A program made the position numbers and the translations under genes. The notes under the pieces were generated by a model. The model worked only from the letters and a program-made list of their open reading frames with translations, was not told where the DNA came from and did no database searches. A stretch of DNA of 64,000 bases from a virus (taxonomy: Duplodnaviria; Caudoviricetes), in the IMG/VR virus record IMGVR_UViG_3300021256_000008, positions 21,079 through 85,078 of that record, one strand, 5' to 3'. This document shows, one piece after another, positions 13,371-34,883 of this stretch; position 1 is the first letter of the stretch; each line of letters begins with the position of its first letter.

Positions 13371-15386
13371 TTATGCAACTTCCTCTTCGAGAACGATGAA
13401 GGAGTACAGACGAGTGGTCGCACCGGAAACGCGGGTCTCGATCAGAGACTTCAGCTGGTTGAAGTCAATGTCAAAGTCGGTGAAATGAGTAATTTCGCCG
13501 CCCTTGGTGGAACCGATGTTATAATCATTCAGGTTACCGATGATAGCAAGCAGACGATAGGTCTTTGCACTTGCGCCTTCGCCAACGGTACGGGTCAGAT
13601 TCTCGAATTCGGGAACGTTGTAAACGCCGTTGACGCCGAGCGTAGAGGTGAGTTCAGCCTTATCCTTGTACAGACGACGACCGTTCAGATCCTTCGCGAG
13701 CTGAATCTTATTGAAGAAACGCTGAGCGCAGAACATATCCATGTTGCCAGAACCACGATAATCGATCATAGCATCAAGGATGGTCTCCTCGACGGCCTGA
13801 GCATACACATAGTTCGCACCAAAGCCCGGATCATTCTCTGCGGCGGTAGCAGAAACAACCTTACGAATGGTGTAAACGCCGTTGTCGGTCCAGATAGGAC
13901 GAATGCGATCTTCAAAGATCTTATCGTCGTCGTTGAGAGCACGACCATCGCCGATCAGGATAGCACGAGCAAGTTCCTTCTCGAGCTGCATACGGTCAAT
14001 GCCGTACTGATAAGTGACATAATCGAAGTCGGTAATATCAACAACGTCATCACGGTTCAGGGCACTCTTGGCATAGATAGTCTGAGGCTCGGTGGTACGC
14101 TTCACAACTGCATAGTTCTCAAGCAGCGTCTTAGCCTTACCCTTCTGATAGCCCTTTGCACGGAGACCGTCGACCTCACGAATATCAACATAAGAAGTGC
14201 GAACACGGCTAAACGGGCTACGATGGACCTTGTTAAGAACAGTCTTAACCCAAGCCTGATCGTTGGTAACGAGCTCCGGAGCGCCCGGGCGAACATCATG
14301 CCACTCGGGGAACAGGGCATCCACACCGGCCGGAGTCTGGCCGGAGGGATAAGAGGTGAAGCCACTGACCGGAGCCAGATCGTCATGGCTCAGAGAATTC
14401 TGTTCGGCATAGGCATTGAGGGCCTCTTTGAAGCTGCCATACTTTTTCGCAACGTCAATAATATGCCCCTGATCCTCATGAGAAATATAGTTGGTCGGAC
14501 GGGCGGCATCAGTGTCTGCAAAAGCGTTAAAATTCATGTTATCTCCTCCAATATCATCATGTTCGACATTATCGTCGTCACTGTCTTTGCCTTCAGCTGC
14601 CTTAGCAACAAGGAACTGAAGGACCTTCATCTGCTTAGAATTCATAGTGTTCAGAACATCCTGAACAGTTTCATCTCCATTATCTTCGTCGTCGGCATGC
14701 TCGAGAACTTCACCTTCGTCGGGGTCGTTGAGATCATCGTGCTCAACTTTGTTCTCTGCCGCCGCCTGAGCGACAATAAAAGAGACGACTTTACGCTGCT
14801 TATCGGTCAGGGTGTCAAGAACATCCTGAACGGTTTCGTTATCGTCCATGTCTTTTTCTCCTTTTTCATTCTTGTCGTTATCATCATCGTCGTCGTCAGA
14901 ATCTGCATGAGCAAGTTCCGGCGGATAATCATCGCCGACATAAATATAAGCTTCATCCATGAGCGTCTCGCAGTCGTCACCGTGAACGACAACGGGGTAG
15001 ACAATCTGAGCACCCATATTGGCTCCGGCAAGCACAAGGCTTACTTCCTTAATTGAACCGTGGAGAACATCTCCGCCCTGCTGCTGCAGCTGATTGGCCC
15101 AAATAGAAAGTGAAGTAATATCACCGTGAGCAATATCGATCTTTGCAGATTTCGCCAGATCGCTGTCATTGAGATACCCATAAAAGAAAACGCCCTCAGG
15201 TCTGTTCTCAAGATATCCATGTCCGAGAACTGCCTCAGGGCTGTCGTGATTGTGTCCCCATACAATTGGGACCCGCTGTCCGTCCTGGTGGGCGAACGCA
15301 TCGCGTCTGATCGTGCGGCCGTCAGAACACCGAATATCGTTTCTGGTGGCCCAGCCGCAGAAATCATAGCCTTTGTACTTAGCCAT
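13371..15386 (-). CDS. Fused prohead protease-scaffold-major capsid protein (HK97 fold), 671 aa
   Basis: N-terminal HK97-type protease (GWAT.NDIRCSDGRTI, WGHNH, LSIWAN, EVSLVLAGAN); acidic middle with two helical repeats; C-terminal capsid domain (ELARAILIGDG, FDIDFNQ.K.LIETRVSG). Confidence 0.9.
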   Translation of the reverse strand: MAKYKGYDFCGWATRNDIRCSDGRTIRRDAFAHQDGQRVPIVWGHNHDSPEAVLGHGYLENRPEGVFFYGYLNDSDLAKSAKIDIAHGDITSLSIWANQLQQQGGDVLHGSIKEVSLVLAGANMGAQIVYPVVVHGDDCETLMDEAYIYVGDDYPPELAHADSDDDDDDNDKNEKGEKDMDDNETVQDVLDTLTDKQRKVVSFIVAQAAAENKVEHDDLNDPDEGEVLEHADDEDNGDETVQDVLNTMNSKQMKVLQFLVAKAAEGKDSDDDNVEHDDIGGDNMNFNAFADTDAARPTNYISHEDQGHIIDVAKKYGSFKEALNAYAEQNSLSHDDLAPVSGFTSYPSGQTPAGVDALFPEWHDVRPGAPELVTNDQAWVKTVLNKVHRSPFSRVRTSYVDIREVDGLRAKGYQKGKAKTLLENYAVVKRTTEPQTIYAKSALNRDDVVDITDFDYVTYQYGIDRMQLEKELARAILIGDGRALNDDDKIFEDRIRPIWTDNGVYTIRKVVSATAAENDPGFGANYVYAQAVEETILDAMIDYRGSGNMDMFCAQRFFNKIQLAKDLNGRRLYKDKAELTSTLGVNGVYNVPEFENLTRTVGEGASAKTYRLLAIIGNLNDYNIGSTKGGEITHFTDFDIDFNQLKSLIETRVSGATTRLYSFIVLEEEVA

Positions 15387-15495
15387 TCATCATGACCTCC
15401 TATAGTATCGATAAACTTCCATTTTGATTTTGTTCCGCGTCATCGTTTTCATGTTCCGCATACTAGAAGTCGAAAATTGGAAGCTTCTCTATAAT

Positions 15496-16902
15496 TTAAA
15501 ATTCTCCCTGACTAAAACGTCTGAGTCGTGCCAGGGCATCGTCCGGCGGAAGTCCTTCTGTTCCGGCACTGTTACCGCTTTGAATATTCTGAAGCCGGGT
15601 TATGGCGTCGCCTTCCGGTATTTCAGTTTCTTCATCCATCGAATTTTCTACTGTTTCGTCGGCAGGAACGTCTGCGCCTGTCGCGCTCGGATTCACCTGC
15701 ATGTCAATCGGCATATTCGGGTTCATCAGCATATCGGCGCCTTCCTGATCGGAGGGTTTAAAGCCGAGGATACCGCGCATCTCATTCGACGCCAGAATCT
15801 GATTTCGTATGAGCGTATCTCCGAGCTTCGCAACTTCGGTCGGAGGAACGACTCGGAACGCATTATAAAACGCCATCATACGGTGCCCTTGAGTATAAGC
15901 CCACTGACTCAACCACTTTCGGTTAATTCCGTCCGTAAGTGTAGTAACCAGAGGCTCAATCATTTTCATGACATAATTGATAAGCATCTGTTCATTTGCT
16001 GTATTATTCAGAATTTCTGGAGCCATACCAAGCTGATCATGAAGTTGTTTAGTCAGCGTATCGATTTGAGACTGAAGATTGTTTTCAAGCGGCCGCCCAA
16101 GCTGGATCACCTTTTCAGAAGCGTCTATATAACCAATCCCATAACGCGAACCGGTTAATTGCTCTTCCAAATCACGCGTTCGTTCTCTGGCGCGTTCTTT
16201 CTGTGTATCATGACGGGTAGAATATGGAAGCTGAATGATCATGTCCAGCTTTCCGGATGCCGTCTTTTCATCCAACTGGTCAAGAATAGCGAGTTTTCGG
16301 CGCAGTCTCTGCATCAAAGAGTTTGGAGCATTCATAATATCCCAGAAAGGATTTTGAATGATGACACACAACTGCTTTGGAAAACTTATCTGTTCTTTCT
16401 GACCGGTCACGTCGTTATATAGCTCAACATCAATTGCGAATGGATGCCAGCCAATAATTTTTCCGACGCGCGCTGTTTTAACCGTTGTGACACTGAGCGT
16501 AGCCCAATTGATGTCTGCAATAATTGGACAGATTGCAATATAACCTTCATCAAGAAGCGACGCATAAATATCTTGCTTGAACTCTCGACCAGACTGATCA
16601 AGGTTTGCTTCTCGAATAAAAAGACTATTAAGCTCATCCTTAACGTCGCTTTTATAGCGATCAGATTCATCAAGTTTAACATGACGAATATCAATTGCTG
16701 CTGCATCAACGGCCATACGATTTAAAATAGGCGCAATAATAGACCGTTCGCCACCGGCTCTTGGCCTTCGACGATCCGGCCTATAGGAAGATGCGTAACT
16801 GTAATATGTTACTTCGCGCGGACCCGTTGTAGTCGGATCCCGATTTCGAAAGGCGTTCCAAGCCTTTTGAATTCGTTCACCCAATGAGGGCAATGGAATC
16901 AC
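15496..16902 (-). CDS. Portal protein, 468 aa
   Basis: Between terminase and capsid genes; NR.AVD.A.IDIRHV and GKLDMIIQLPY, typical portal size. Confidence 0.85.
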   Translation of the reverse strand: MIPLPSLGERIQKAWNAFRNRDPTTTGPREVTYYSYASSYRPDRRRPRAGGERSIIAPILNRMAVDAAAIDIRHVKLDESDRYKSDVKDELNSLFIREANLDQSGREFKQDIYASLLDEGYIAICPIIADINWATLSVTTVKTARVGKIIGWHPFAIDVELYNDVTGQKEQISFPKQLCVIIQNPFWDIMNAPNSLMQRLRRKLAILDQLDEKTASGKLDMIIQLPYSTRHDTQKERARERTRDLEEQLTGSRYGIGYIDASEKVIQLGRPLENNLQSQIDTLTKQLHDQLGMAPEILNNTANEQMLINYVMKMIEPLVTTLTDGINRKWLSQWAYTQGHRMMAFYNAFRVVPPTEVAKLGDTLIRNQILASNEMRGILGFKPSDQEGADMLMNPNMPIDMQVNPSATGADVPADETVENSMDEETEIPEGDAITRLQNIQSGNSAGTEGLPPDDALARLRRFSQGEF

Positions 16903-16911
16903 CTCCGAAGT

Positions 16912-17946
16912 TTATGATTTCTTAGATTTCAGAAGAGGACCAAACAGATTGGAAAGCTCTTCACCGGACATATTCGACAGAAACTCCCATTCTTCCATTT
17001 CGTCGTGCATTCCATCGACGATGTTCTGTGCTGTCCACATCTGATACTGTGTATATTCCCCGTTTTTGTATCCCTGCTCAATTTCTTTAAGCGCGTCTTC
17101 GGCTTCCTTGATCACCTGCTGGGCCTGCTGTTTTCCGTTATCCGCCCACTCCTTCAGTTTATCCGGGGAAGACGGAATTTCAGTTGCATAGCTTCCGAGC
17201 ATGGATCTGGTTTCGCTATTGGAATTAGAAGGAGAGCCGTTATGGTCTTTCAGTTTCTGCTGAATTTCTTCCTTGGCCTTTCTTGCTGTTTCTTTAGCAT
17301 TGGATGCTACTTCAGATGCTTTTTCCTTAACATCATCTGCCGCATTTTCAACAGCTTCTCCTGCCTCGGCGACCTTTCGTCTTGCCATCTCGGCTTTCAT
17401 GCCGGCTGGGTGCTTCTGAAGCTCGGACCAGGCCTTTTTCATGCGATCTTTAGAAGCCTCGCTGAAGTTTTCATCGGAAGCCTGTTTTCCGGCGTCCTGA
17501 TACTCCTTATATGCTCTGGCGGAAGCCTTGGCTTCATTAACCGCACCCGAAGCCTTATTCTTAAACTCGTTCCCGATCTGTTCGGCACGGGTCCTGGCTT
17601 TGGAAGCTTTTTCCTGCGCTTCGCCCATTCCGGCTCTGGCCTTTTCCTTAGCTTTATTCACCGTTTGCTGAGCGGCAGCTTTCTTTTCAGCCAGATACGC
17701 CTTAAGCTCTTCCTGCGTATAGAAATATCTGGTACGCCCATTCTCTTCAATCTTCTGAATGTACTTATGGGTGGTTCTTACGCCCCTGCCGACACCCTGC
17801 TTTACAGCGCCAGCTGCTGAACCGACTGCAGATCGTGCAGTTCTTAAGGCTCCGCTTGTGCGCTGTCTTATATCGGAAAGCGATGCATGCGCAATGTAAG
17901 GACTTCCATTTTGATCGAACAGTAGAATGTAATCGTCTTCATTCAT
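16912..17946 (-). CDS. Ala/Lys-rich putative internal head protein, 344 aa
   Basis: N-terminal DYILLFDQNGSPYIAH; HKYIQKIEENGRTRYFY motif; long low-complexity helical body; lies in the head module. Confidence 0.55.
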   Translation of the reverse strand: MNEDDYILLFDQNGSPYIAHASLSDIRQRTSGALRTARSAVGSAAGAVKQGVGRGVRTTHKYIQKIEENGRTRYFYTQEELKAYLAEKKAAAQQTVNKAKEKARAGMGEAQEKASKARTRAEQIGNEFKNKASGAVNEAKASARAYKEYQDAGKQASDENFSEASKDRMKKAWSELQKHPAGMKAEMARRKVAEAGEAVENAADDVKEKASEVASNAKETARKAKEEIQQKLKDHNGSPSNSNSETRSMLGSYATEIPSSPDKLKEWADNGKQQAQQVIKEAEDALKEIEQGYKNGEYTQYQMWTAQNIVDGMHDEMEEWEFLSNMSGEELSNLFGPLLKSKKS

Positions 17947-18019: not shown

Positions 18020-18832
18020 CTAGTTCTTCTTGAAATGCTCATTAAGTTCCGAAATAAGAGCATCCTTATACTTGTTCACAAAGCTAGTGACATGCTCTTT
18101 TTTCTCATCGGTAACTTCTTTCAGTGCAATCTGCGCAAAATCGCCGGTCTCTTTAAAAAACGTCTTTGCGGCTTCTCTTTTCTCACGCTTGGCCTTCTTG
18201 ACTGCCTCACTAGATGCATTCAAATCCCGCTTGGCATTAGCCTTTTCGAACTTAATCGGCGGAACCGCTTCAAAAGCACCAACGTGCATCGCCAGAGCCT
18301 GTAAGCCAACGTTTTTCATGTATTCCTTGAAATTATCTTTTTTGGCTTTCCGAGCACGTTTTGCTTCGGCCTGCTTTTTCTTATAATCTGCAAGTGCCTC
18401 AACTGCCTCAGCATACTCCCGTTCCTTCTGATTCTTTGGAGCAAAGCCAGTTCCGCCGGTCACAGGAGTAGAGCTATTAAGCCCGTCTCCGCGTTTATAG
18501 ACGCTTCCTTCTTTCGATTTACCGGTCACTTTCTTAGAATGTCCGACAGGACGCCTGCCTGGAGTGGTAACGGTGCCTCTTCTGAATTTATCAGATCCTT
18601 TACCTTCATAAATGCCGCCGTTTTCCGAAACTGATCTGGTACCTGCACTTCGATTACGCTGATAGGCATCCCATTCCTGCTTACTGTAGAAATAGCGTGT
18701 TTTCAGACCGTTCTTTATTTTCTCATAGTACTTATGATCTTTCTTACTTTCATTTTGATTCTGTCTACGAAAGAAGGCATGAGAAATGTAAGGATGACCG
18801 GATTCATCAAAACTCACAATATAGTCTGACAT
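18020..18832 (-). CDS. Basic putative internal head protein, 270 aa
   Basis: N-terminal DYIVSFDESGHPYISH; HKYYEKIKNGLKTRYFY motif shared with 16912-17946. Confidence 0.55.
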   Translation of the reverse strand: MSDYIVSFDESGHPYISHAFFRRQNQNESKKDHKYYEKIKNGLKTRYFYSKQEWDAYQRNRSAGTRSVSENGGIYEGKGSDKFRRGTVTTPGRRPVGHSKKVTGKSKEGSVYKRGDGLNSSTPVTGGTGFAPKNQKEREYAEAVEALADYKKKQAEAKRARKAKKDNFKEYMKNVGLQALAMHVGAFEAVPPIKFEKANAKRDLNASSEAVKKAKREKREAAKTFFKETGDFAQIALKEVTDEKKEHVTSFVNKYKDALISELNEHFKKN

Positions 18833-18848: not shown

Positions 18849-19295
18849 TCAAAGATGTCTTAGATACATCTGATTAGTGGTACGTGAAACGCGATTCATA
18901 AATTCCTGACCGGCTGTAATGATACTCGGATCCAGAGTTACAACACTCTGTTTGCCGAATTCCTTCTCCATTTGCTGTACCCATCTGGCGCCTTTTTGTG
19001 CTGTTTTAACGGCACGTGCTGACTGCACTCTAGACTTCGCGTACTGCTTTTGAGCGTAATTCGGAGACCGGAATAAAACTCTGGAATCCGCTGCTGCGCC
19101 TTTTGCCATACGCTTACGGGCCTTCTCGTCGTGCTTTTCGATCTTTCTCTGGAACTTTCCGACTTTCTTGGCGGCTTTCTCATAAGCCCGCTGAGGATTA
19201 TGCCGAACGCCCCATTTCATACCGAGAACACCGTAATGAGCGAGACTTGGAGAGCCGTTTTCATCATAGGATACAATGTAATCGGACATAATCAA
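18849..19295 (-). CDS. HxGxxGxKWGVR-motif protein (DUF7211-like), 148 aa
   Basis: SLAHYGVLGMKWGVR followed by a highly basic region; the DUF number is from memory and needs checking. Confidence 0.6.
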   Translation of the reverse strand: MIMSDYIVSYDENGSPSLAHYGVLGMKWGVRHNPQRAYEKAAKKVGKFQRKIEKHDEKARKRMAKGAAADSRVLFRSPNYAQKQYAKSRVQSARAVKTAQKGARWVQQMEKEFGKQSVVTLDPSIITAGQEFMNRVSRTTNQMYLRHL

Positions 19296-19852
19296 TGCTC
19301 CCTTCGAACTGTATACTTCTTTCCTGTAACAAATCCGGAAGCATCCGGTTGGTTGTATTTAGTGGCCTGATACGCATTAATGCTGTTATACGCCAGATTA
19401 CCCGGAATACCCGCAAGGGCATGGGCCAATGCCGTTTCACCAGCAGTTACAAAACGGTTGTATTCCTTGCTGTTAATTGTCATCCCTTTATTGCTTGCAT
19501 CAGAAAGAATCTTACTTACAAGCTTTTCGCCGGAACGAATAGCGTCGTCATATTCCTTGGCTTTTGCGGTATGCTCTTCATACTTATCGTCTTTACTCTT
19601 CTGATAAGCTTTTTCAGCTTTGATCTTTTCTTTTGCGCTTTTGTAACGAAGGCGAGCATTTTCGGATTCGATCTTATTCAGGCTTCTCTGTGTACTACTC
19701 GCGCTGTCTGAATTATACCGTTTCTTTCCGGCATCGGTTAACGTACCGTCCTCATTTTGATACCGCCGGACGCCCCATTTCTGTCCTTTGATACCATGGT
19801 GAGCGAGGTAATCGTTTTCATAATAATCCATAAAGTCGCTCATGGTTATCAC
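19292..19852 (-). CDS. HHGxKGxKWGVRR-motif protein (DUF7211-like), 186 aa
   Basis: YLAHHGIKGQKWGVRRYQNEDGTLT. Confidence 0.6.
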   Translation of the reverse strand: MITMSDFMDYYENDYLAHHGIKGQKWGVRRYQNEDGTLTDAGKKRYNSDSASSTQRSLNKIESENARLRYKSAKEKIKAEKAYQKSKDDKYEEHTAKAKEYDDAIRSGEKLVSKILSDASNKGMTINSKEYNRFVTAGETALAHALAGIPGNLAYNSINAYQATKYNQPDASGFVTGKKYTVRREH

Positions 19853-19857: not shown

Positions 19858-21603
19858 TTATTCAAACATGTCCCTGTTGATCCTATAGGCAACATAGGCA
19901 TCGAGCATCGCAGAGACATTATCGATCTTCTCTTCGCGATGCTTCTTTCTTAATTTTCTGTTTCCATTAGTATCTTCCTGGGCAACACAATGGCCCATAC
20001 AGAACTGCATAATATCTTCGTCAAAAATAAGTTCACGGCGTTCCGCAAGAACCTTCAGTTCACCAAGCGGAACTGACTCGGTCTTTACACCCTGAGGAAC
20101 TTTTTCAATTCCGTATGGTCCGTTATCGATCTCCCAACGATTGATAAACACCGGCGCATTATATGGGTCGTATCCAACGCACATGACGTTATAGCGCTTA
20201 TCGTTAATAAACTGATAGAGATCTTCATAAACCATACCGATATCAAGAACGGTGGAGTCCATAATAACAAGACTACCTTCACGAAGGAACTTTTCATATT
20301 CCTGTCGAAGTGCTCTCGGAAGCTTTTGGAACGTATAGGACGTAATATAGCTTCGCGCCTTAACTCCAAAGCCTCTTCCCGGAATCGGGAACAGAAATGT
20401 AAAAGCACAAAAGTCGTCACCGAGCGAAAGGTCAGCACCCATCGAGCAGCTCATACCATCGAAGTACTGGCGGTGATGCGGCTTGGTTTCTTCATAAGTA
20501 AAGAAATACGTGTAACCTTCACATGGGATTCCAAAACGTTTGGCCAGAATATCATTACGGTTAGAAGGGCTCTTTTCAGAACGTTCTTTCTCGAGCTTAT
20601 AAGTCTCGTACGTTACTGTGTGACCAAGATTCGGGTTGGCCTTCAGCCACATATTCGGATTCTCGAGTTCCGTAAGATCGTCAAGCTTATACCACCAGAT
20701 GGACACATGAGGATTGTAGTAATCGCCCTTTAAGATGTCCATCAGTTCCATTTTGATTGTATCGCCAGGCCCATTTCGAACGGTTCCTTCCGATGATGTC
20801 GCAACAATTAGCCAATCGTCAACTTTGGCCGCTCCCTGTTCAAGAGCGCCAACGACATCTTCGTTTACAACTCCGGAAAGCCATTCGTCAACGGTTGAGT
20901 ATTTGCATCTTGCGCCCTGAAGCTTATCAATGCGCATAGGACGCGACTCGATAATGGACTGAGTTTCGAAGTTTTCAATACCCTTCTTGGTGGCTGCAAT
21001 CTTGACACGATCCGCTTTCTTCCCGGTCGTATTCTGGAGCGATCCTTCTGTCATGAACTGAAGAACCGGGCCTCTTGCTCTGGCTATCGCGATCTTAAGA
21101 GGCAACAGCGTTTCTTCGGATTGGCGTATCGTAGGTGCCGTGATTATTTGGTCAGTAGATTCTTCGTCCATGATCAGACCATACGCTTGAATACATGTGC
21201 AGTATAGACTTTTTGCTGCGCCACGACCGACAATCAGATACTGCTTATTACGCAACCGCTTCTTAATGTACCGCGTCTCCAGATGAACTCCGGGACCGTA
21301 GCTGTTCGGCACCCAGACATCTCGCCGGATGAAATAGAACCAAGAATAAATATCCTCGGCCCATAATTTAAATGAGTCGAGGAGTCTAAGGTCTCCGCCG
21401 TCCGTAAGGGTTAGTTCCGATTCACAAAAGTTGATCCAACCGTCCATGACCGTATCGTCATAGTAGCAGCGCGGATCGGCGATAAGACCGTCTATAATGT
21501 TCATTTGAAGAGCGACTTCCCGATTCACCGGAATCTCTCTTCTTAGTACGGCGTCTCGAAAAGCGCCGTAATATTTTGGTACAGCGGTGTTCGATAACGC
21601 CAT
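19858..21603 (-). CDS. terL: Terminase large subunit, 581 aa
   Basis: Walker A GRGAAKS, Walker B STVDEW, nuclease GADLSLGDD and KIDNVSAMLDA. Confidence 0.95.
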   Translation of the reverse strand: MALSNTAVPKYYGAFRDAVLRREIPVNREVALQMNIIDGLIADPRCYYDDTVMDGWINFCESELTLTDGGDLRLLDSFKLWAEDIYSWFYFIRRDVWVPNSYGPGVHLETRYIKKRLRNKQYLIVGRGAAKSLYCTCIQAYGLIMDEESTDQIITAPTIRQSEETLLPLKIAIARARGPVLQFMTEGSLQNTTGKKADRVKIAATKKGIENFETQSIIESRPMRIDKLQGARCKYSTVDEWLSGVVNEDVVGALEQGAAKVDDWLIVATSSEGTVRNGPGDTIKMELMDILKGDYYNPHVSIWWYKLDDLTELENPNMWLKANPNLGHTVTYETYKLEKERSEKSPSNRNDILAKRFGIPCEGYTYFFTYEETKPHHRQYFDGMSCSMGADLSLGDDFCAFTFLFPIPGRGFGVKARSYITSYTFQKLPRALRQEYEKFLREGSLVIMDSTVLDIGMVYEDLYQFINDKRYNVMCVGYDPYNAPVFINRWEIDNGPYGIEKVPQGVKTESVPLGELKVLAERRELIFDEDIMQFCMGHCVAQEDTNGNRKLRKKHREEKIDNVSAMLDAYVAYRINRDMFE

Positions 21604-21622: not shown

Positions 21623-23122
21623 TTAATCAATTTGCCAAACATAACGAATGTTTTTACGATTCTCAGGAGTGTCCTCAAAACCAAGATCTTTAAGAACAAC
21701 ACTATCTAGATTTTCTTCTGCTTTGTCATAAGCTTCTCTTGCTTTTTTCATTGCAGGATCGTTATTGAGTTGACGAACTCCTTCTAAAAAGTTGTTATCA
21801 AGATCGTATTTTTTGTATAGACTTTCATTGACGTTTTCTAGTTCGTCCCATTTGTCCTTAAGATCGGCAAGCGCCCTTTCATGATCTTTGGACACCGAAC
21901 GACTGTCGTACCAATTGCCGCTTTTTTCATTATAAGCTTTAGAAATCGCAATATACTTTCCGATATCAGCATCAGAAGGGTTTTCGCCAGTTGCCGATTT
22001 CAAATAGTCTTCCTGAGCCCTCGCACGCTCGTCACGGTCTTTAATATTAGACATGCGATCAAGTTCGAGTTCGCCGTCTTTTTCTAATTTATCCCAATAT
22101 TTTTTATAGATTTCTTTATCCTGTTTGGAAGCTTTCCACTTTCCGTTGCTTCTTTTTCGGTATACATTTCGAAAGGTTCCGTTACTGGCATACCTGGTTT
22201 TTCCTTCTTCGGTCAGTGTCCCGTCTGCATTCTGGTAGCGTCTTACGCCCCATTTCATACCAAGAATGCCATGATGAGCGAGAAAATCTTCGTCGTCTGA
22301 AATATCTTCCACATTAGTTCCGAGTGCGTCATGTGATACATACCAGTCGGGATCCCGCCCGGTGTACCAGTTTGCGTTTTTCGGAAGATTATCAACAATA
22401 TCTTGGACAAGGTCTTCGGTTGACTTCACTTCCGGAATAGACGAAGCTACTTTCTTATTAAGTACATCAACGGAATTAGACCACTTGACGTATTCGGCGA
22501 GTTCATTTGCCGTGAACGCCTTCTGATTCTTCAGAATATCATCAACTGACATGTTTCGAAGAAGTGCCGCCTTGTCAACTTTCTTCTCTTCCGGTTTTTC
22601 ACCGATCTTGAGCATTCTCTTACCGTTGACTTTTCCGGAGTCAACCAGTACGTTGTTAACTTCGGCCATAAGGTTATACATACCCTTTGCGTTTTCAGCG
22701 AGGCCTTTAATCTTGCCGAGATTCTGAGAAAACTGCTGCATTTTGTTCCATCCGCGCTGAATTTCAGCATCACGAATATCTTTCAGCGCAGTATCGGTTC
22801 TGATCTTATTCGTAAGATCACGGATCTCATCGTCGGAAAACTCGGTGCGGTACTTATACAGTCTGCTCGGATGTTTACGAACATGCTCTTTCAGAGCTTC
22901 ATGCTTTTCGGCTTCTGACTCTTTTGCCTTGGCGGCTTTTTCTTCCTTCAGCTTACTTACTTTATCCTTAATCTTTTCTCGGACTGATTTGTCAGAAATT
23001 CCGCGTCTCTGTCGCCCGAGCTGTGTGAGAGATCCGTCTTCGTTCTGATAACGACGAATTCCCCATTTCTGGCCTTTAATGCCGTGATGGGCCAGATAAT
23101 CATTGTTGAGTTCAAATTCCAT
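21623..23122 (-). CDS. Protein with two tandem HHGxxGxKWG modules, 499 aa
   Basis: YLAHHGIKGQKWGIRRYQNEDGSLT at the N-terminus and FLAHHGILGMKWGVRRYQNADGTLT internally. Confidence 0.65.
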   Translation of the reverse strand: MEFELNNDYLAHHGIKGQKWGIRRYQNEDGSLTQLGRQRRGISDKSVREKIKDKVSKLKEEKAAKAKESEAEKHEALKEHVRKHPSRLYKYRTEFSDDEIRDLTNKIRTDTALKDIRDAEIQRGWNKMQQFSQNLGKIKGLAENAKGMYNLMAEVNNVLVDSGKVNGKRMLKIGEKPEEKKVDKAALLRNMSVDDILKNQKAFTANELAEYVKWSNSVDVLNKKVASSIPEVKSTEDLVQDIVDNLPKNANWYTGRDPDWYVSHDALGTNVEDISDDEDFLAHHGILGMKWGVRRYQNADGTLTEEGKTRYASNGTFRNVYRKRSNGKWKASKQDKEIYKKYWDKLEKDGELELDRMSNIKDRDERARAQEDYLKSATGENPSDADIGKYIAISKAYNEKSGNWYDSRSVSKDHERALADLKDKWDELENVNESLYKKYDLDNNFLEGVRQLNNDPAMKKAREAYDKAEENLDSVVLKDLGFEDTPENRKNIRYVWQID

Positions 23123-23194: not shown

Positions 23195-23794
23195 TTAGTC
23201 GTTCATACCGGCGGCACGAATCATCGAAATGTACTTCTTGAGTTCCTGCTTCTCGTAATCGGAAGCAGATGTATCAAAGAGCTTTTCGAGACAGGAGACC
23301 GCGCGGTCGCTTATGCTGTGACGACTGTAGCCGTGACCACGATCGGAGTATTCAGGACCATAGTACGGATCGCCGCAATAGCTGCGGTTCATGAACTCAG
23401 AAGGATATCCGGGATAACCTGAGTAGCCATCGGAATTGCTCTGATACCAGCCATGAACACCATAGTTGGGATTCCCATAGCTTCCGCGATTCATGCTACC
23501 ATAACTGCGATCCGAGTAGACAGCCCGCTCAGGCATGCCGTAAGAAGTGATATGATACTGACGGTAAGGTTCGCCGTGCATAGAATATCCACGCTCAGCG
23601 TACTCACCTGGTTCTTTCTTCTCTTCCTCGGCCTTGCACTCCTCTACACGGCAGCAAAGCTCGTCGTACAGATGAAGACCGTCAATGGCGGCTTTGGTTT
23701 CGGCAGGAGTGAGGTCATTCTTCTGCATGAGTTCGTCGAGGCATTTCGCTACGACTTTCTTCATGTTTTCCATGGATTCAGTTTTCAGTTCCAT
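23195..23794 (-). CDS. Tyr/Gly/Ser-rich protein with helical termini (spore-coat-like composition)
   Basis: Start moved to MELKTE behind GAGGAGG; central Y/G/S/R-rich low-complexity tract. Confidence 0.55.
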   Translation of the reverse strand: MELKTESMENMKKVVAKCLDELMQKNDLTPAETKAAIDGLHLYDELCCRVEECKAEEEKKEPGEYAERGYSMHGEPYRQYHITSYGMPERAVYSDRSYGSMNRGSYGNPNYGVHGWYQSNSDGYSGYPGYPSEFMNRSYCGDPYYGPEYSDRGHGYSRHSISDRAVSCLEKLFDTSASDYEKQELKKYISMIRAAGMND

Positions 23795-23808
23795 TTTGAA
23801 TTTCCTCC

Positions 23809-24261
23809 TCACTTCTTCTTGAACACAATATTCGCAGCCTGGACCAGAATAGGTGTAGTTCCAGTGTTACGAATACTGAGCGTCTGGCAGCAGCCCTTCC
23901 AAATGGACACGTTGGCAGCTCTGGAGACATTAAAGTACTGTTCAATAGCGGCCGGCGTAACTTCCATTTCGGTTCCTGCCAGAGTATTTCCGTCAAGAGC
24001 GAATGCAACCGAAATAGGTCCGACTGTCTCTCCTTCAAGAATGGCGATATTAGCGCCGAAATCCACCATATAGTCTACGGTAGCCGGCTTGCAGCAACAT
24101 CTCCGAACACAGGAACCGGTATCGATTCCCTTCATCAGAAAGGCGCCGCTGTCCTCACGGTGCAGAATATAACCCCTCGGGCATGACTGTGCCGTATCGG
24201 TGAAGACGATGGCCTCACCGGGGTTGACCGTCTGAACGGCAACACTAGTCCATTCAGCCAT
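23809..24261 (-). CDS. BclA-C-terminal-like beta-sandwich protein, 150 aa
   Basis: VQTVNPGEAIVF, Y.V.FGANIA, I..A..LDG, ANIV; resembles the trimeric C1q/BclA-CTD pattern; Cys cluster CVRRCCCK. Confidence 0.5.
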   Translation of the reverse strand: MAEWTSVAVQTVNPGEAIVFTDTAQSCPRGYILHREDSGAFLMKGIDTGSCVRRCCCKPATVDYMVDFGANIAILEGETVGPISVAFALDGNTLAGTEMEVTPAAIEQYFNVSRAANVSIWKGCCQTLSIRNTGTTPILVQAANIVFKKK

Positions 24262-24273
24262 CTCGGCACCTCC

Positions 24274-25116
24274 TTAACCCATGCAGCCGCAGCCTGTATT
24301 CTGAGGGCAGCAGTTCTGATTCTGAGGGCAGCAGTTCGGATTCTGAACGATATACGCAGGACGCGCCGTCGGCAGAACATACTGCTCAATCTCATTAGCC
24401 AGAGCACGCTGACCGGCCTGAATCGTTGCAGTCTGCTGGGCCTGAGAGGCCAGACGATTCGCTTCGTTCAGCTGAGCCGTAAGAGCAGCAATCTGCTGAT
24501 CCTTACCGGCAAGCTCGAGCTGGCAGATCTTATCCATAACGGTCTGAATACCGGCATTCGTAGCATTGACAATCGCCTGGGTATTGGCATTATTTGCCAT
24601 TAGCATATTGGTCAGACCTTCGTTCAGGGCAGTGCGATCCGCACAGTTCTCAGTCGCGACCGTATACTTTAAGTCGGCGAGGCCGGCACGGTTCTCACAA
24701 CAGCAGCTCTGAAGATTCATGGCCAGGCCATTCATGCCGGAAATCGTCGCTGCCTGATTGGTGTTCAGAGCCTGAAGAATGTTCATGTTGGCATTGCAGC
24801 GGGAGATCTCAGCGTTTGCAAAGCCGTTGTTGATAGCGCCGGTAATGCCGTTCAGAGAACCCATGATGGCAGACTGGTCAAATCCGCGCTGAACATCAGC
24901 GTTCTGCTGGTTGCCAATCATAAACGGCATCATACCGCCCATGCCGCCACCAAAGCCGAAGCCATTGCCCCAACCGTTGTTAGCAAACAGAAGCAGGATA
25001 ATCAGCCACCAGGCAGCGTCGCCGCCGAAGAAGCCGTTACCGAAACCACCGTTACCGCCATACATAGGACTTACGGGCATCGTGAAATTGGCATTACCGT
25101 TTTCAGAGTAAGACAT
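24274..25116 (-). CDS. Gly-rich / TM / coiled-coil protein with Cys-rich tail
   Basis: GGNGGFGNGFFGG-WWLIILLLF-GWGNGFG; N/Q/A-rich heptads; CCCENR; 21-nt tandem repeat encoding NCCPQ twice; start moved to 25116 (SD AAAGGAG). Confidence 0.7.
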   Translation of the reverse strand: MSYSENGNANFTMPVSPMYGGNGGFGNGFFGGDAAWWLIILLLFANNGWGNGFGFGGGMGGMMPFMIGNQQNADVQRGFDQSAIMGSLNGITGAINNGFANAEISRCNANMNILQALNTNQAATISGMNGLAMNLQSCCCENRAGLADLKYTVATENCADRTALNEGLTNMLMANNANTQAIVNATNAGIQTVMDKICQLELAGKDQQIAALTAQLNEANRLASQAQQTATIQAGQRALANEIEQYVLPTARPAYIVQNPNCCPQNQNCCPQNTGCGCMG

Positions 25117-25285
25117 GATAATCTTCTCCTTTGAGAATATGAATTTACGTTCTTTCAATTCGCGCTCTATTTACACAGAAAAATTGCGTCCGGACGAAAG
25201 AGGATGAGCACGGATCATTCCGACGTATAAGGAATATTTAAACCGACCTCTGGTTAGCTGCTCCTTGGTTGGTCTAAACCAATAT

Positions 25286-29544: not shown

Positions 29545-29550
29545 TTTGTT

Positions 29551-29991: not shown

Positions 29992-30588
29992 ATGAAAAAA
30001 TTCATTTCAATGATGCTGGTTCTGACGCTGCTTGGAAGTTTATTCTCTGTAACATCTTTTGCTGATGCCAAATCTGACATTGAAGTAATGTCAAAAATAG
30101 CAGACAAACTTTTTGATACTTCAGATGACATGGATGTCCAGGTATTCTTTTCAGCAGCTACTTATGAACTGTTACGTAGAAAAATTATTTCGGTTGAGCA
30201 ATGCAATGAAATACTTTCAATCATTCAGTCACCGGATAAAAATACTTATACATTCGGTAAGGGAACCTTTATTGTCGGTACAGATCTGAAAGCCGGCACC
30301 TATAATATCTTTTGTGAATCTACGGACCAGGATAATTACTCGGACAGCATAAGTTCTTTCGGAGATCTCTATACCCAGTATGGGATGCAGGAATATGCAG
30401 ACGCTTTTAGTTCTCTTGGTGGTCTTGCTGATTCGATGAAGTCTATTACTGTTACGACTTACTCTTCCAGAGGTCTGATGGATAAGTACTACACACTGAA
30501 AAATAATGAATCAGCTCGTATCATTCTGACAGATGGAATGCAGCTTGAAATTAGCGGCGGAACTGCAAGACTTGAGTTCGTAAGATAA
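29992..30588 (+). CDS. Secreted/surface protein with a signal peptide (moron-like), 198 aa
   Basis: MKK + hydrophobic core + SFA-D cleavage-like site; GTFIVGTDLKAGTYNI motif; SD AGAAAGGA; own promoter. Confidence 0.75.
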   Translation: MKKFISMMLVLTLLGSLFSVTSFADAKSDIEVMSKIADKLFDTSDDMDVQVFFSAATYELLRRKIISVEQCNEILSIIQSPDKNTYTFGKGTFIVGTDLKAGTYNIFCESTDQDNYSDSISSFGDLYTQYGMQEYADAFSSLGGLADSMKSITVTTYSSRGLMDKYYTLKNNESARIILTDGMQLEISGGTARLEFVR

Positions 30589-30589
30589 C

Positions 30590-31021
30590 TTAAATCTTCC
30601 AGGGACATGTGTCATTTGGTGTTCTTACTACGAGCTCATAAGGTGTAATAAGAGACTCGTCACCATAATGAATCGCGTCATGAGTTCGTTTACGACAAGA
30701 AATAACATACTCGGGATTCATTAAGAACTGTGTCTGATCAATGATGTCTTTCGTATCTATTGGATTCATATGGTGAATAAATATCTTTTCATGCTCCCCA
30801 AACGGATGATCAAGATCCGCCAAGTCACAACCGAAGTCTCTTAAAATTATCTCTCTTCTAAACTTTCGCCATTCGTACGATGTGTAGAATTTTTGATTTA
30901 AATATCGCTCCCAGCCAAAAGTTTCTTCACCAACTTTTCCGCCGAGCTTTAGATAGCGAAAACGCTCAAGAAATGTAGGAAGAGCCATAAGCTCAGAATA
31001 CGTACGGATTTTCTGGTACAT
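30590..31021 (-). CDS. HNH endonuclease (terminase-associated type)
   Basis: W...R..I..RD.GCDL; IHHMNP; H.AIH; start moved to MYQKIR at 31021. Confidence 0.85.
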   Translation of the reverse strand: MYQKIRTYSELMALPTFLERFRYLKLGGKVGEETFGWERYLNQKFYTSYEWRKFRREIILRDFGCDLADLDHPFGEHEKIFIHHMNPIDTKDIIDQTQFLMNPEYVISCRKRTHDAIHYGDESLITPYELVVRTPNDTCPWKI

Positions 31022-31358
31022 CGGTAGACTCCGTTCTATAATTCTTAAGAGCTGCAACAACTTCTTTGTAAAATATAGCACGATCTTTCTCGGACTCGAT
31101 AGCCGATGTCTTAGCTCTGAGTAACGCGTTCTCCTCTTGCAGTTTCGCCATCTCTTCTCTATACTTTGCAGAACCGGCCTTTAGAAAAGGAACTATCTCG
31201 GCAGCCGTTGCAGTGCCATTATCAATTCGCTCTTCAACAAGGCGATAGCTTTTCATGATCAATCGGTTCTCATACTCTTCTGGAGTGGTCGGAATTGGCT
31301 CAGGAAAAACTTCACTACTAGTTTGTTTGGGTTTTCGTGCAGCCAAGGTATAGTTCAT
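30993..31358 (-). CDS. Candidate terminase small subunit, ~121 aa
   Basis: Small helical protein with a C-terminal coiled coil next to the HNH gene and the non-coding GC-rich site; assignment is positional only. Confidence 0.4.
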   Translation of the reverse strand: MNYTLAARKPKQTSSEVFPEPIPTTPEEYENRLIMKSYRLVEERIDNGTATAAEIVPFLKAGSAKYREEMAKLQEENALLRAKTSAIESEKDRAIFYKEVVAALKNYRTESTDVPENPYVF

Positions 31359-31383
31359 CTCCTTTCTTGCCTAGTTTTACCAT

Positions 31384-31537
31384 AGTCTCGATACTTTTTA
31401 GGTGAGTATGATGCTAGTTTTCACTAGAGTATGGACGGAGCAAATGACACGAAAGGAGAACCCTTGGAAGAAGAGGAATACGGCAATGAGCAAAACCGTT
31501 AACGAATACATCATACTCACTTAAAAAGCATCGGACT
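31384..31537. repeat. Long imperfect inverted repeat (about 29-nt arms)
   Basis: AGTCTCGATACTTTTTAGGTGAGTATGATG (31384-31413) pairs with CATCATACTCACTTAAAAAGCATCGGACT (31509-31537). Confidence 0.85.
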
Positions 31538-31550
31538 AAAATATAAACTA

Positions 31551-31623
31551 TCCCCCCGGAGGAAAATTTAGGACCCGCGCGATTATGGGCCCCCTATATT
31601 ATATTTTGACCCTCCCCCGGGTG
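31551..31623. other. GC-rich island in a non-coding gap; putative packaging/genome-end site
   Basis: CCCCCCGGAGG...GACCCGCGCG...GGGCCCCC...CCTCCCCCGGG in an AT-rich ~480-bp gap next to HNH and the terS candidate. Confidence 0.4.
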
Positions 31624-31834
31624 TTTATATCCGATTTATATTTAGTTTATGTTCATAAAAGACGAATGAACAAGCGCAAAGCGCATAGAAGTTGTAAGAA
31701 ATGCAACTAGATAGCGATTCGTTATGAGATAGTTGACATCTATACCTATAATCAATCTATAATCATACAAAAAGCTATCTAGTTGCGGTCTAGTTTCAGT
31801 TTATTTCGTTTCTATTATTACAATTTTATTCTTT

Positions 31835-32101
31835 CTAACTCTCTACGACTTTTACATAACATACTTCTTTTCCAGTAACAGGACTAATCATTCGAAGATC
31901 CATCGCTACAATCTCATCACAAGCATCTTCGATAGCCTGATCCATTTCTTTTTCCGTAAGATCGGGAGAAATAGCAGCAATGCGCGCGAGGTAGGACATG
32001 GAATAATAGCCACATTCTTTTTCGTCATACGCTGCCCAACGATCATATTGTTTGAATGGATCAAACTTATTGTCACTTGTTGTTATTAGTGTTCGCGCCA
32101 T
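31835..32101 (-). CDS. Conserved hypothetical protein, 88 aa
   Basis: TT.DN.FDPF.Q.D.W..YD...GYY...YLARIA; overlaps the end of the RNA polymerase gene. Confidence 0.65.
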   Translation of the reverse strand: MARTLITTSDNKFDPFKQYDRWAAYDEKECGYYSMSYLARIAAISPDLTEKEMDQAIEDACDEIVAMDLRMISPVTGKEVCYVKVVES

Positions 32102-34883
32102 TGTTCAAATCGCCTCCCATTCCATTAAAGTTCTTGAATTCTTTTGCTAAAGCATCTACTGAAACTCCTAATTCTTTTGCTACAGTTGAAGGTGCATAGC
32201 CAGAATTCAATAATACTCTTGCACGACTTTTTGTCGTTGCTTTCATTCCGGTAGAGGCTCTTGGTAAAGCTCTTTCTTTTATTTTAGTTTTATCTGAGTA
32301 TCTTAAAACTTTTTGGAACTGAGTATCTGAAATAGCTCCAGCCTGAATTGCTTCCCATTCACGATCAGTAAGATCTATTCTGTAACGTTTTTCATGTCTT
32401 CCGCCATTTACAGCGTCTCTTGCATTATCTAAAGCTTTAGCGGCAAGTTTTCTTCTCTTATCAGCATGATCTTTATCTCTAAGAGAAGGATCAGCCGCTT
32501 CTTTTGCTCTCATAACATTTGAGGCAATGATCTGAGCTTGACGCTCTTTCGGAGCCTCGAGTTCTGCTCGAGCAATCTTCTTTGCAAGAGTTCCGTCTTT
32601 TCCTACAACATCGTCGTAGACTTCACGTGCGGTCTTGTTCTGTTCAAGCCGACCAGTAGAACGAGCTTCTTTACGAGCTTCATTTGCCAGCGCTTTCATT
32701 CTATTAGAATGCTCAGCATACACTTCTTCAATGTAATAACCGGCGGACAGTTCATGAGCATCGTCTACAACCGATAATTTTTCAACTTTGTCAATATTGT
32801 CTACCCATTTACCATTCTTATCTTTATGCTTATGACCCGTAGGACGATAGATCTTTTCACCTCTATCATAACGTTCCTTCTCTTCCGGTGTCATGGTAGA
32901 GTAGGCATAGATTTCCTTTCTCTCAGGAATTCTGGTCTCACCCTTAGCTCTCGAAATCAGTGTGGAAGCGCCGCCACCATCCTGATAAAGTTCTTTAAGT
33001 TGAGCGATGCCATTATCTTCGTAAGACTTTTTCCAGTCAAGGTTGTGTTTTTCGGCATCTATTACGCACATTGAATGCCTAACGGCTCGTTCGATTTCGC
33101 TTGGATCAGCGCCCTTGATCGTCATGTCCGTAATCAAGTTGGATGCCATACCCATCTGAACGCCTTTATTAAAGCCGTCGCCCTTCTTTCCATCCTTGCT
33201 TTTACCGGTTCGAATCGGATCGTTCGGATCTCTCGTGTAGTAATCGGACGGATTGTAATCGATGAGACCTTCCATAGGAGGAGCTGTCTTTAGCTTTTGG
33301 CCTTTTGTCGGAATAACAAGAACTGTATCGCCGTCATAATCTGCGCCAGATAGCTGGTTTGCAGAACGTGAATTAATCCCAATTGCGTGCGCTGCAGATG
33401 TACCAAGAAGCGCTTTTCCTTCAGGATTGTTATTATTTACAATCAGCCTTGGAATCTGGAAAACGCCTTCATGCGGATGACGAACAAGAATGACTTCTTC
33501 TCCCTGTTCATACATAGGAGCATAAACTTCGTTATCTTTAAGACTCGTAACAGGTAAAATTGCAAAAGCACCTTGGCGCGGCAATGCAGCGGCTTTCAAA
33601 TGCACGGCGGCAGAATCACATGTATCTGCAAACTCTTCGCAAAGTTGCCTCTTAAGAGTCGGATTTGTGATAGATTTAAGTTCCTCAAATTCATCGCTCA
33701 TTTCGCCATAGCGGAGATCGAGTTGCTTTTTTGCAAGCTGTGGCCACTGCTTCGAAAGAAATTGGGATGACAGGTTTTTCTTCCACGTATCCCAGTCTTC
33801 ATCATCGTTTACGATGTTAATCGGCGACGTATGTTTTTCACCATTAGGGCCATCGTATTCCCACTGCCTAAAAGATGCTCCAAACGGATTTTCGGCATCG
33901 ATTTTTCCTTTATCGTCCGTTTTCATTTCTTTAAGAACGGTGTTATCACCTTTCCCAATCATCGGAACATCTGAATGCTTATTTGTATTAAACACAATAT
34001 CGACGCCGGGAGGCATCTTTGAAGGATCACCATAAACGGCCATTCCCTTCAGATAATGTGTCCCATCAACACCAATTCGAACCTGGGCATAGTTTCTGCC
34101 GCCCAAATATAAATCATCGGTTCCTGGACGAATCTCGATAACTCCGTCTTTCTCCTGTCCGCCGCCAGGTTCACCAGTATTGTAGTTCACCATGACGCGG
34201 CTTGAATCGATACTCGGGATCGGCTTTCTGTGAACTGCAGTTTCGCCGTAGTCCTCAAAATATAAACCTTCAGGCGATGTTACTTTCCCAAGATTCTCTT
34301 TAAGCTCTGCTTTGGTTACTTCGCCATCACAAAGAATTTTTAGATTCGTAAACTGCTTCGGATTACTGACCTGAGGAAGGCGATAATCATAGACGTTGTA
34401 TCCTTCGTCTTCAAGAAGCAGTCTTGCAGCATGAAGCTGCTCTTCACTGATATTCAGCTGACGGTTAACACCTTCACCGATGTCCAGATACGGTTTGTCT
34501 TTCAGATACTCTTTCAGCTCGTTAGCGATATTCTGTACAGTATCTTCGCGACGTTTCTTTGATGGATCCAAAAGATTACGAACAGTACCTTCTGAAACTC
34601 CAAGCTTTTCAGCAATTGCCGTGTTACTCCAGCCTTTATCTTTCAGCTTCAGGGCTGTCATCTGATTTTCGGCACCGATTTGATTCTTATAGATCTTTCG
34701 CATGGCGACATAATCGCCGGTACTCAAACCCATAGCTTCAGCAATTTGCTTCTTTGATAGTCCTTGTGCGGCAAGGTCGTCAGCGCGCTGAAGAAAGTTT
34801 TTATTACGCTGAGGATTCTTTCCGGATCCCCAAGGGTAACGTCCAGAATGTCTAGGTGTTCCGTAATGTTTTAAAATATTCAT
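32073..34883 (-). CDS. Single-subunit two-barrel (DPBB) RNA polymerase, YonO/QDE-1-like, with HTH domains
   Basis: LSGADYDGD (33327-33347), upstream LVRHP, and AQVRIG...LKGM resemble RdRP-family signatures; two N-terminal HTHs (KKQIAEAMGLS, NTAIAEKLGVSEGTVRN) and a C-terminal HTH (STVAKELGVS); ATG 34883 preferred over TTG 34895. Confidence 0.8.
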   Translation of the reverse strand: MNILKHYGTPRHSGRYPWGSGKNPQRNKNFLQRADDLAAQGLSKKQIAEAMGLSTGDYVAMRKIYKNQIGAENQMTALKLKDKGWSNTAIAEKLGVSEGTVRNLLDPSKKRREDTVQNIANELKEYLKDKPYLDIGEGVNRQLNISEEQLHAARLLLEDEGYNVYDYRLPQVSNPKQFTNLKILCDGEVTKAELKENLGKVTSPEGLYFEDYGETAVHRKPIPSIDSSRVMVNYNTGEPGGGQEKDGVIEIRPGTDDLYLGGRNYAQVRIGVDGTHYLKGMAVYGDPSKMPPGVDIVFNTNKHSDVPMIGKGDNTVLKEMKTDDKGKIDAENPFGASFRQWEYDGPNGEKHTSPINIVNDDEDWDTWKKNLSSQFLSKQWPQLAKKQLDLRYGEMSDEFEELKSITNPTLKRQLCEEFADTCDSAAVHLKAAALPRQGAFAILPVTSLKDNEVYAPMYEQGEEVILVRHPHEGVFQIPRLIVNNNNPEGKALLGTSAAHAIGINSRSANQLSGADYDGDTVLVIPTKGQKLKTAPPMEGLIDYNPSDYYTRDPNDPIRTGKSKDGKKGDGFNKGVQMGMASNLITDMTIKGADPSEIERAVRHSMCVIDAEKHNLDWKKSYEDNGIAQLKELYQDGGGASTLISRAKGETRIPERKEIYAYSTMTPEEKERYDRGEKIYRPTGHKHKDKNGKWVDNIDKVEKLSVVDDAHELSAGYYIEEVYAEHSNRMKALANEARKEARSTGRLEQNKTAREVYDDVVGKDGTLAKKIARAELEAPKERQAQIIASNVMRAKEAADPSLRDKDHADKRRKLAAKALDNARDAVNGGRHEKRYRIDLTDREWEAIQAGAISDTQFQKVLRYSDKTKIKERALPRASTGMKATTKSRARVLLNSGYAPSTVAKELGVSVDALAKEFKNFNGMGGDLNNGANTNNNK

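Follow-up and report, generated by a model that had tools for sequence, protein, structure and literature searches.

The 64,000-nucleotide stretch of viral DNA analyzed here (the window) corresponds to bases 21079-85078 of the 85,078-bp IMG/VR virus record IMGVR_UViG_3300021256_000008, the genome of a gut phage that has direct terminal repeats and is judged complete; nearly all genes of the window lie on the minus strand. One of them encodes a putative prohead protease, a scaffold-like linker, and the major capsid protein fused in a single chain, and a hydrophobic-x-His motif ([LIVM]-x-H, hereafter LxH) recurs along this linker and closes the N-terminal leaders of several other proteins. In the alignments of related precursors, the motif is a conserved, position-specific signature of the linker, with one site where the protease domain ends and another where the capsid domain begins. 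We read LxH as the recognition site of the fused prohead protease and the proteins that bear it as packaged cargo, and assign this reading a probability of about one half. The conservation and position of the motif, its restriction to one phage lineage, and the structural annotation of two homologues in Lactococcus phage 1706 are established.

The fusion protein (671 aa; 13371..15386, minus strand) matched phrog_3270, 'head maturation protease' (E 5.6e-191). Its AlphaFold2 (AF2) model has a mean predicted local distance difference test score (pLDDT) of 81 and contains a compact protease domain, an HK97-fold capsid domain, and three helical modules between them. The predicted mature capsid domain (337 aa, residues 335-671; 13371..14384, minus strand) has the HK97 fold, as shown by Foldseek matches to the capsids of a gene transfer agent, HK97, D3, and actinophages (E 3e-13 to 1e-10; template modelling (TM) score normalized to the target, 0.5-0.7); those to the gene transfer agent, HK97, and actinophages span ~330 columns at E 3e-13 to 1e-11. 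The protease domain (residues 1-130; 14997..15386, minus strand) was modelled with a pLDDT of ~97. It aligned with profile positions 5-135 of the 142 positions of TIGR01543 proheadase_HK97 (E 1.2e-5, 25 bits; cut-off 59) and with PF04586 (Peptidase_S78; E 0.0016, 19 bits; cut-off 21). Across 88 fusion homologues, H45 and S94 are invariant and H109 is nearly so; by inference from the HK97-protease family, these would be the catalytic residues. The N-terminal domain is read as a distant HK97-type prohead protease, whose cleavage of the precursor is predicted.

The linker between the two domains (residues 131-334; 14385..14996, minus strand) is strongly acidic, with a net charge of -42 over 199 aa, and seven of its eight His residues fall in the motif, with L, I, or V at position -2. 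The seven sites listed in a preliminary description of the window were all recovered by translation: VVH135-GD (His codon 14982-14984), LAH160-AD (14907-14909), VEH216-DD (14739-14741), LEH230-AD (14697-14699), VEH276-DD (14559-14561), ISH303-ED (14478-14480), and LSH334-DD (14385-14387), all on the minus strand. Likewise, 337 aa remain after a cut at His334, as that description had it. In the AF2 model, helical modules at residues 186-212, 241-265, and 303-329 are separated by low-pLDDT segments and flanked by the motif sites. Six of the seven sites lie within such segments or no more than 2 residues from them; His303 is the start of the predicted helix 303-316, five residues past the low-pLDDT segment 269-298. 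The linker region (window 14385-14996) also encodes two copies of a ~30-residue helical repeat (ETVQDVL[DN]T[LM]..KQ.KV..F[IL]VA.AA), each followed by VEH-DD, which looks like a duplicated scaffold module.

To describe the motif across the fusion family, 150 representatives clustered at 50% identity were collected, of which 144 were aligned. Among these homologues, 879 of 984 linker His residues (89%) had L, I, V, M, or F at -2, compared with 210±13 (maximum 242) after residue shuffling and with 26% of the His residues in the capsid domain. Each linker contained 3-10 sites (median 6). Counting P3 to P1 before the presumed cut and P1' and P2' after it, the site reads L (43%), I (22%), V (11%), or M (10%) at P3 (86% together; 90% with F), A/E/S/Q/K at P2, H at P1, S/A/G/D/N at P1', and D/E at P2'. 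H135, which closes the protease domain, is an invariant column among 88 sequences. The last linker LxH, before the capsid domain, is nearly invariant (143 homologues) and lies a median of 14 residues upstream of an LFP motif; in 1706 it reads VLKH and is followed by AITNIDVLFP.

The same pattern was found outside the capsid precursor. It had been proposed to close a short leader in five head-module proteins and in the RNA polymerase, and the minus-strand open reading frame (ORF) translations contained all six sites. In three of the head-module proteins the leader is followed by a conserved peptide, the HHGxKGxKWGVRR motif of the preliminary description, which proved to be the Pfam family DUF7211 (PF23847); four copies in these three proteins scored above the cut-off (27 bits). 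The 148-aa protein (18849..19295, minus strand) has the leader site PSLAH-YG (His codon 19236-19238) and then DUF7211 (E 7e-10, 38.6 bits), the match being located at window 19197-19247 in a search of the phage's own genome. The 186-aa protein (19292..19852, minus strand) has DYLAH-HG (His codon 19799-19801), then DUF7211 (E 8e-9, 35.1 bits). The 499-aa protein (21623..23122, minus strand) has a leader closed by DYLAH-HG and carries two DUF7211 modules (E 7.5e-20, 70.4 bits, two stretches). Its sites are H12 (23087-23089), H264 (22331-22333), and H283 (22274-22276), all on the minus strand; in the interior, VSH264-DA is followed by FLAH283-HG, which places a second LxH 19 aa upstream of the internal tag.

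The other two head-module proteins have a leader and a site without DUF7211. These are a 344-aa basic coiled-coil protein (16912..17946, minus strand), whose leader ends PYIAH20-AS (His codon 17887-17889), and a 270-aa very basic protein (18020..18832, minus strand; body charge +25), whose leader ends PYISH18-AF (His codon 18779-18781). They are paralogues (E 2e-14) with a common DYI..FD..G.PYI.H leader and a common HKYxxKIxxGxxTRYFY block. Weak, low-complexity-prone BLAST matches connected them with an actinophage gene located between portal and fusion (LxH-EYDPxKxxxYY..R.LKGR), to which they may correspond. The bodies of the cargo candidates are basic (+3 to +25), in contrast to the acidic linker. 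In the AF2 model of a 183-aa tagged protein listed under the 19292..19852 gene, residues 1-17, including the tag, are disordered, and the body is folded with high confidence. No significant structural match to this body was found in the PDB; the best rows, a likeness to ESCRT-III/Vipp1 hairpins, had E above 1 and are not meaningful.

The preliminary description had taken the positional clustering of the motif as its evidence. Within the window alone this evidence is weak: [LIVMF]xH occurs in the first 30 residues of 13 of the 73 minus-strand ORFs, which include the six flagged ORFs and seven others without a common context. Across relatives, on the other hand, the clustering goes far beyond chance. 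A length-limited search recovered 4742 relatives of the 186-aa protein, and in its 120 closest relatives the residue preceding the tag (146 copies) was His in 99% of cases, with L or I at P3 in 97%. The tag consensus was [HY]-G-[IV]-K-G-x-K-W-G-x-R-R within a 20-30-residue peptide. A second sample comprised 205 tag copies in 196 ORFs on 79 IMG/VR contigs; His stood directly before the tag in 204 of 205 copies and L, I, M, or F at P3 in all 205. This 79-contig sample is partly biased, as one of the two search patterns included the His; the extra paralogues of each contig came from the His-free pattern. The leaders before the tag His measure 7-35 aa (5th-95th percentile; median 14), the shortest having 6 residues (MDYLAH), and they are acidic or aromatic and otherwise unconserved.

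The tag also occurs inside proteins. A second LxH, typically LSH-TD, was present 1-30 aa upstream of 29 of 49 internal tags, compared with 8% of control windows. This double-site layout is what would be expected of a polyprotein with excisable spacers that is cut on both sides. Chance or composition as the source of the motif was ruled out by the linker shuffles and, for the double sites, by the control windows.

With regard to distribution, 76 of the 79 viral contigs with DUF7211 also encode homologues of the window terminase, portal, fusion, or polymerase, and DUF7211 was not found in 14 control genomes. The number of tagged genes per contig varied from 1 to 9. Circum, DrGrey, ReqiPepy6, 1706, and Oengus all have repeated LxH in the fusion linker, together with one to eight tagged paralogues around terminase and portal. 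In addition, 73 of 138 fusion homologues read G-[IVLFM] after the last linker His, or [YFH]-G-[IVLFM] within eight residues of it. Because these junctions read alike, the tag LxH-[HY]-G-[IV] resembles the capsid maturation junction, and this likeness leads to the speculative suggestion that the tag is received by the protease domains on the inside of the procapsid.

A Pfam domain informative of function was found in four of 93 tagged bodies (three Gln_amidase and one 2H/2'-5' RNA ligase); because only these four matched, the effector reading rests on few cases. Three more bodies matched only low-complexity or uncharacterised families. The Gln_amidase matches ('Papain fold toxin 1, glutamine deamidase') lie on three DUF7211-tagged IMG/VR proteins, with a best E of 2e-10. 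The Gln_amidase domain occurs in polymorphic toxin systems. The 2H phosphoesterase/2'-5' RNA ligase domain (PF13563, E 6e-7) is N-terminal in gp13 of Rhodococcus phage ReqiPepy6 (531 aa; L006:546-2141). The tag of gp13 is internal, with MMH followed by YGIKGMKWGVRR near residue 370, and so comes after the enzyme domain, not before it. In gp10 of Streptomyces phage DrGrey (L005:6010-6702), the tag is MSDELIH-YGVKGMKWG, and a HESAH (HExxH-like) motif seen by eye suggests that the body may be a zinc metalloprotease.

The sixth marked protein is a YonO-like single-chain RNA polymerase (32073..34895, minus strand; phrog_4291, E 2.5e-303) with a DxDGD-type metal-binding loop (GADYDGD) and helix-turn-helix units; its match to PF05183 (RdRP; E 0.0084) is under the cut-off. 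Its N-terminus, MNILKH (His codon 34866-34868), is followed by YGTPRHSGRYPWGSG, so the site is ILKH-YG. This N-terminus did not match the DUF7211 model and is motif-like only; its peptide Y-G-T-P-R-H-S-G-R-Y-P-W-G-S-G is related to that of DUF7211. In 116 of 120 polymerase homologues Y-G-[TIV]-x-[RK]-[HR]-S-G-R-Y-P-W-G was present, preceded by His in 110 of the 116. The polymerase leaders contain 6 to 94 residues, and all 18 leaders longer than 40 residues hold further LxH sites. The tagged N-terminus was also found in ReqiPepy6 gp106, Streptomyces phage Bilo gp57, Oengus gp55, and 1706 orf75; because both branches have it, the polymerase tag predates the split between actinophages and Firmicutes phages. 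In Actinobacteria phages and Firmicutes phages alike, both the DUF7211 tag and the polymerase tag begin with the P3/P1 signature of the linker sites. At least 8000 candidate metagenomic relatives of the polymerase were recovered, all passing E 1e-10.

Some of the polymerases (P0035, P0041, P0054, P0057, and others) carry a 70-100-aa N-terminal extension with a conserved FEGWxQDxIDEY..PS.ELY.EL block. In these extended polymerases, extra LxH sites precede the YGTPRH tag, as if the added module were cut off. Another polymerase (L095), from a 57.8-kb IMG/VR record (G003; 96% completeness estimate), has three LxH in its leader, yet the residue directly preceding the tag is D. Neither the fusion nor the terminase had a match in this record, which is probably a fragment without the head module.

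The lineage that shares these features was recovered by tblastn with the fusion and with the polymerase, which returned nearly identical sets of ~245 phage records. The relatives comprise phages of Arthrobacter, Gordonia, Streptomyces, Curtobacterium, Rhodococcus, and Microbacterium, Lactococcus phage 1706 and its kin, and Faecalibacterium phage Oengus. This supergroup of 1706, Oengus, and the actinophage clusters AM-AU-BI-DJ-CC, with its capsid-protease fusion, was described previously (PMC5513430; bioRxiv 10.1101/842583), and the YonO-like polymerase assignment has been published for 1706 and Oengus (PMC2919709; bioRxiv 10.1101/842583). In PMC5513430 and bioRxiv 10.1101/842583, no cleavage sites, linker motif, tag family, or polymerase packaging are described. 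Full-text literature searches likewise returned nothing relevant on DUF7211, the linker motif, the tag peptides, the 1706 ORFs, or a YonO-like polymerase packaged in virions.

Two homologues in phage 1706 bear on virion association. Both orf7, which has two tags and occupies the same gene position as the 499-aa gene, and orf75, which is 34% identical to the window polymerase, are annotated 'structural protein' in GenBank. The ReqiPepy6 GenBank record carries the same structural label, by similarity. Because the two 1706 homologues are annotated as structural, virion association of the double-tagged protein and of the polymerase is plausible.

LxH is read as the site of the fusion protease because it is built like the sites of T4 gp21 and SPN3US gp245, with P3 hydrophobic, P2 free, and P1 fixed. 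According to this reading, the HK97-family protease domain would recognize [L/I/V/M]-x-His with His at P1. The seven linker cuts would free the protease domain after H135 and chop the three helical scaffold modules into small pieces able to exit the shell, and the cut after H334 would expose the 337-aa HK97-fold capsid domain. The three DUF7211 proteins, the polymerase, and the two basic proteins with plain leaders would enter the procapsid, be trimmed at their His residues, and stay in the filled head, from which they would probably be released into the cell with the DNA. Once delivered, the polymerase would function as virion RNA polymerases do. Targeting would depend on the site and the retained DUF7211 peptide, perhaps also on the acidic linker attracting the basic cargo, and not on the removed leader; the site and retained tag are the more likely address because leaders can be only 6 residues long (MDYLAH). 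Cleavage, His as P1, packaging in this phage, and injection are what we infer from these patterns.

More tentatively, and at somewhat less than even odds, the scheme may be extended to cargo loading throughout the lineage. A His-P1 protease present on every capsid subunit would dismantle its own scaffold and would receive and trim the LxH-[HY]G[IV]..KWG.. proteins that mimic the capsid junction. In this way, changeable basic, toxin-like, and enzyme-like effectors would be loaded together with the YonO-like polymerase, which would be injected for N4-style early transcription.

Several points weigh against the protease-site reading. The Peptidase_S78 and TIGR01543 models match the protease domain only under their cut-offs, a PDB search yielded no sequence relatives for the fusion, the polymerase, or the tag family, and the structural-protein label of 1706 comes from the GenBank record. 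The tag sites (H-[HYWF]-G) differ from the linker sites (H-[SAGDN]-[DE]) at P1' and P2', and they may be bound but uncut, or cut poorly; the tag His could also simply be part of the DUF7211 binding peptide. In 6 of 116 polymerases (~5%), D, Q, or W replaces the His and the rest of the tag is kept. Two complete phages (L091/L096 and L093/L097; 95.6 and 101.2 kb) have polymerase N-termini that end in ...SEYKED-YGTPRHSG, with leaders lacking LxH, and both retain LxH in their capsid linkers (7-9 sites). No covariation of linker and polymerase was thus seen in these two complete phages with His-less polymerases, and because they keep LxH linkers, the His is dispensable for the polymerase tag.

In one alternative, which we regard as doubtful, LxH and DUF7211 (or the polymerase variant) would form one uncut docking peptide that brings proteins to the assembling head by way of the portal, the protease domain, or the helices of the scaffold, and only the linker would be cleaved. 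The conserved block extends 20-30 residues beyond the His, more than a cleavage site needs, and the divergent P1'/P2' residues and the polymerases that keep the remaining tag after D, Q, or W point the same way; in T4, moreover, Asp at the cleavage position stops processing, not targeting (PMC9026906). However, P3 and P1 are as in the linker sites in nearly all tag copies, and the upstream leaders vary freely in length, as removed peptides would. Upstream of internal tags there is a second site of the linker type, and the 344-aa and 270-aa proteins have a leader and a site without any DUF7211.

It is unlikely that the tagged proteins serve in head assembly, as additional scaffold, core, or chaperone proteins, and are degraded at LxH and absent from mature virions. 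Their genes sit between terminase and portal, several are scaffold-like, low-complexity Lys/Ala/Glu-rich coiled coils, and the 344/270-aa type may be related, by the weak matches given above, to the conserved actinophage gene between portal and fusion. Yet contigs differ in how many tagged genes they have (1 to 9) and of what kind, unlike with core assembly genes, 1706 orf7 and orf75 are annotated structural proteins, some tagged bodies are of effector type (the three Gln_amidase papain-fold toxin domains and the 2H phosphoesterase), and a polymerase is no assembly factor. Lower still is the probability we give to the view that the linker His residues act in metal or pH sensing for scaffold release, the tag likeness being a by-product of a common turn and cleavage occurring elsewhere or through a host protease. 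Repeated His-acidic pairs in an acidic linker could bind metal ions, but protease sites account better for the strict hydrophobic P3, the position of H135 and H334 at domain borders, and the disordered surroundings, and known prohead proteases have the same P3-x-P1 layout (L/I-x-E in T4; A-x-E in SPN3US). Conservation across hosts of two phyla speaks against a host enzyme. A host protease as the cutter was judged unlikely, and a co-inherited phage protease is favoured, because 1706, Oengus, Circum, DrGrey, and ReqiPepy6, whose hosts belong to two phyla, all show this pattern and have the fused protease in common.

In phage order, the genes of this region are the RNA polymerase, an HNH endonuclease, a lysis block, the 499-aa gene, the large terminase, the 186-, 148-, 270-, and 344-aa genes, the portal, the fusion, and tail genes. 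For context, the large terminase (19858..21603, minus strand) matched PF20441 (E 9e-25) and phrog_9, and the portal (15496..16902, minus strand) matched PF04860 (E 3e-12) and phrog_12. Between the lysis block and the 499-aa gene (window 23195-25158) lie genes for three Cys/Gly/Tyr-rich proteins, none with an LxH leader or tag.

In T4, the prohead protease gp21 removes the capsid-targeting sequence (CTS) of IPI-III and Alt after L/I-x-E (Mullaney and Black 1996; reviewed in PMC9026906). The proteases SPN3US gp245 and phiKZ gp175 cut capsid, ejection, and other proteins at (S/A/G)-x-E (A-x-E in SPN3US), and propeptides have been implicated in head targeting (PMC7411985, PMC5694885). Thus T4 gp21 and SPN3US gp245 each process ejected head proteins too (PMC9026906, PMC7411985, PMC5694885). 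Like the T4 CTS, the present system has a motif with hydrophobic P3 and fixed P1 that is common to capsid/scaffold proteins and changeable basic, here putatively internal, proteins, short N-terminal leaders, a tagged set that varies between related phages, and delivery with the DNA, which is here predicted. It differs in that P1 is His rather than Glu, in that an HK97-type protease is fused to scaffold and capsid in a siphovirus virion whereas that of T4 is a separate core protein, and in that a conserved DUF7211 peptide follows the site and would be retained. The preliminary description had proposed a T4-like system with His at P1. The P3/P1 signature common to linkers and leaders agrees with this part of the proposal; the removed leader, in contrast, is probably too short and variable to target as that of T4 does.

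With phiKZ and SPN3US, the window phage shares a consensus site common to the capsid and many head proteins and a virion RNA polymerase, the latter again predicted here. The differences are the 85-kb genome, a single-chain YonO-like polymerase instead of a five-subunit enzyme, His at P1, and short leaders instead of propeptides of 100-130 aa. The HK97 prohead protease cuts after Lys. The particles of N4 and crAss-like phi14:2 bring along a phage RNA polymerase that serves early transcription, and no N-terminal protease-site tag is known on the N4 or crAss-like polymerases. Packaging of the window polymerase, unlike theirs, is deduced from the 1706 annotation. Phi14:2 gp66 and YonO belong to the same two-barrel DxDGD fold class as the window polymerase (PMC2919709).

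The fusion protein, the gene order, and a putative YonO-like polymerase are shared with the supergroup of 1706, Oengus, and actinophages (PMC5513430; bioRxiv 10.1101/842583). Pfam assigns no function to PF23847, and its family description includes neither the L-x-H before the tag nor the association with the protease-capsid fusion nor the variant on the polymerase. In 2017, Jamet et al. reportedly described polymorphic toxins and effectors that are packaged in the head through fusion to MuF, portal, or protease domains. As in such systems (PMC9503650), the present proteins would combine a constant head-addressing module with variable effector-like bodies (including 2H and toxin types), and they are encoded beside packaging genes. 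Here, however, the address would be a linear N-terminal peptide of ~25 residues, sometimes repeated in the chain, and not a folded MuF or portal domain. Overall, the lineage, the fusion, the polymerase, DUF7211 as a Pfam family without function, and a protease consensus common to capsid and cargo (T4, phiKZ, and SPN3US) were already known; what differs is the proposed His at P1, the fusion of the protease to its substrate, and an address peptide that would stay on the cargo.

If this reading is true, DUF7211, a family with thousands of members, would gain a role, and His at P1 would be new in comparison with the prohead protease specificities considered above (L/I-x-E in T4, A-x-E in SPN3US, and Lys in HK97). 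It would also explain how 1706, Oengus, and several SEA-PHAGES actinophage clusters could begin transcription with their own non-canonical polymerase. The tag, which may further be of use as a short address by which foreign proteins could be loaded into the heads of siphoviruses, would predict virion cargo in a phage lineage that is abundant in gut, rumen, and soil and has cultured members. Among the predicted cargo would be bodies of the toxin-like and 2H-phosphoesterase types, which may act against host defences.

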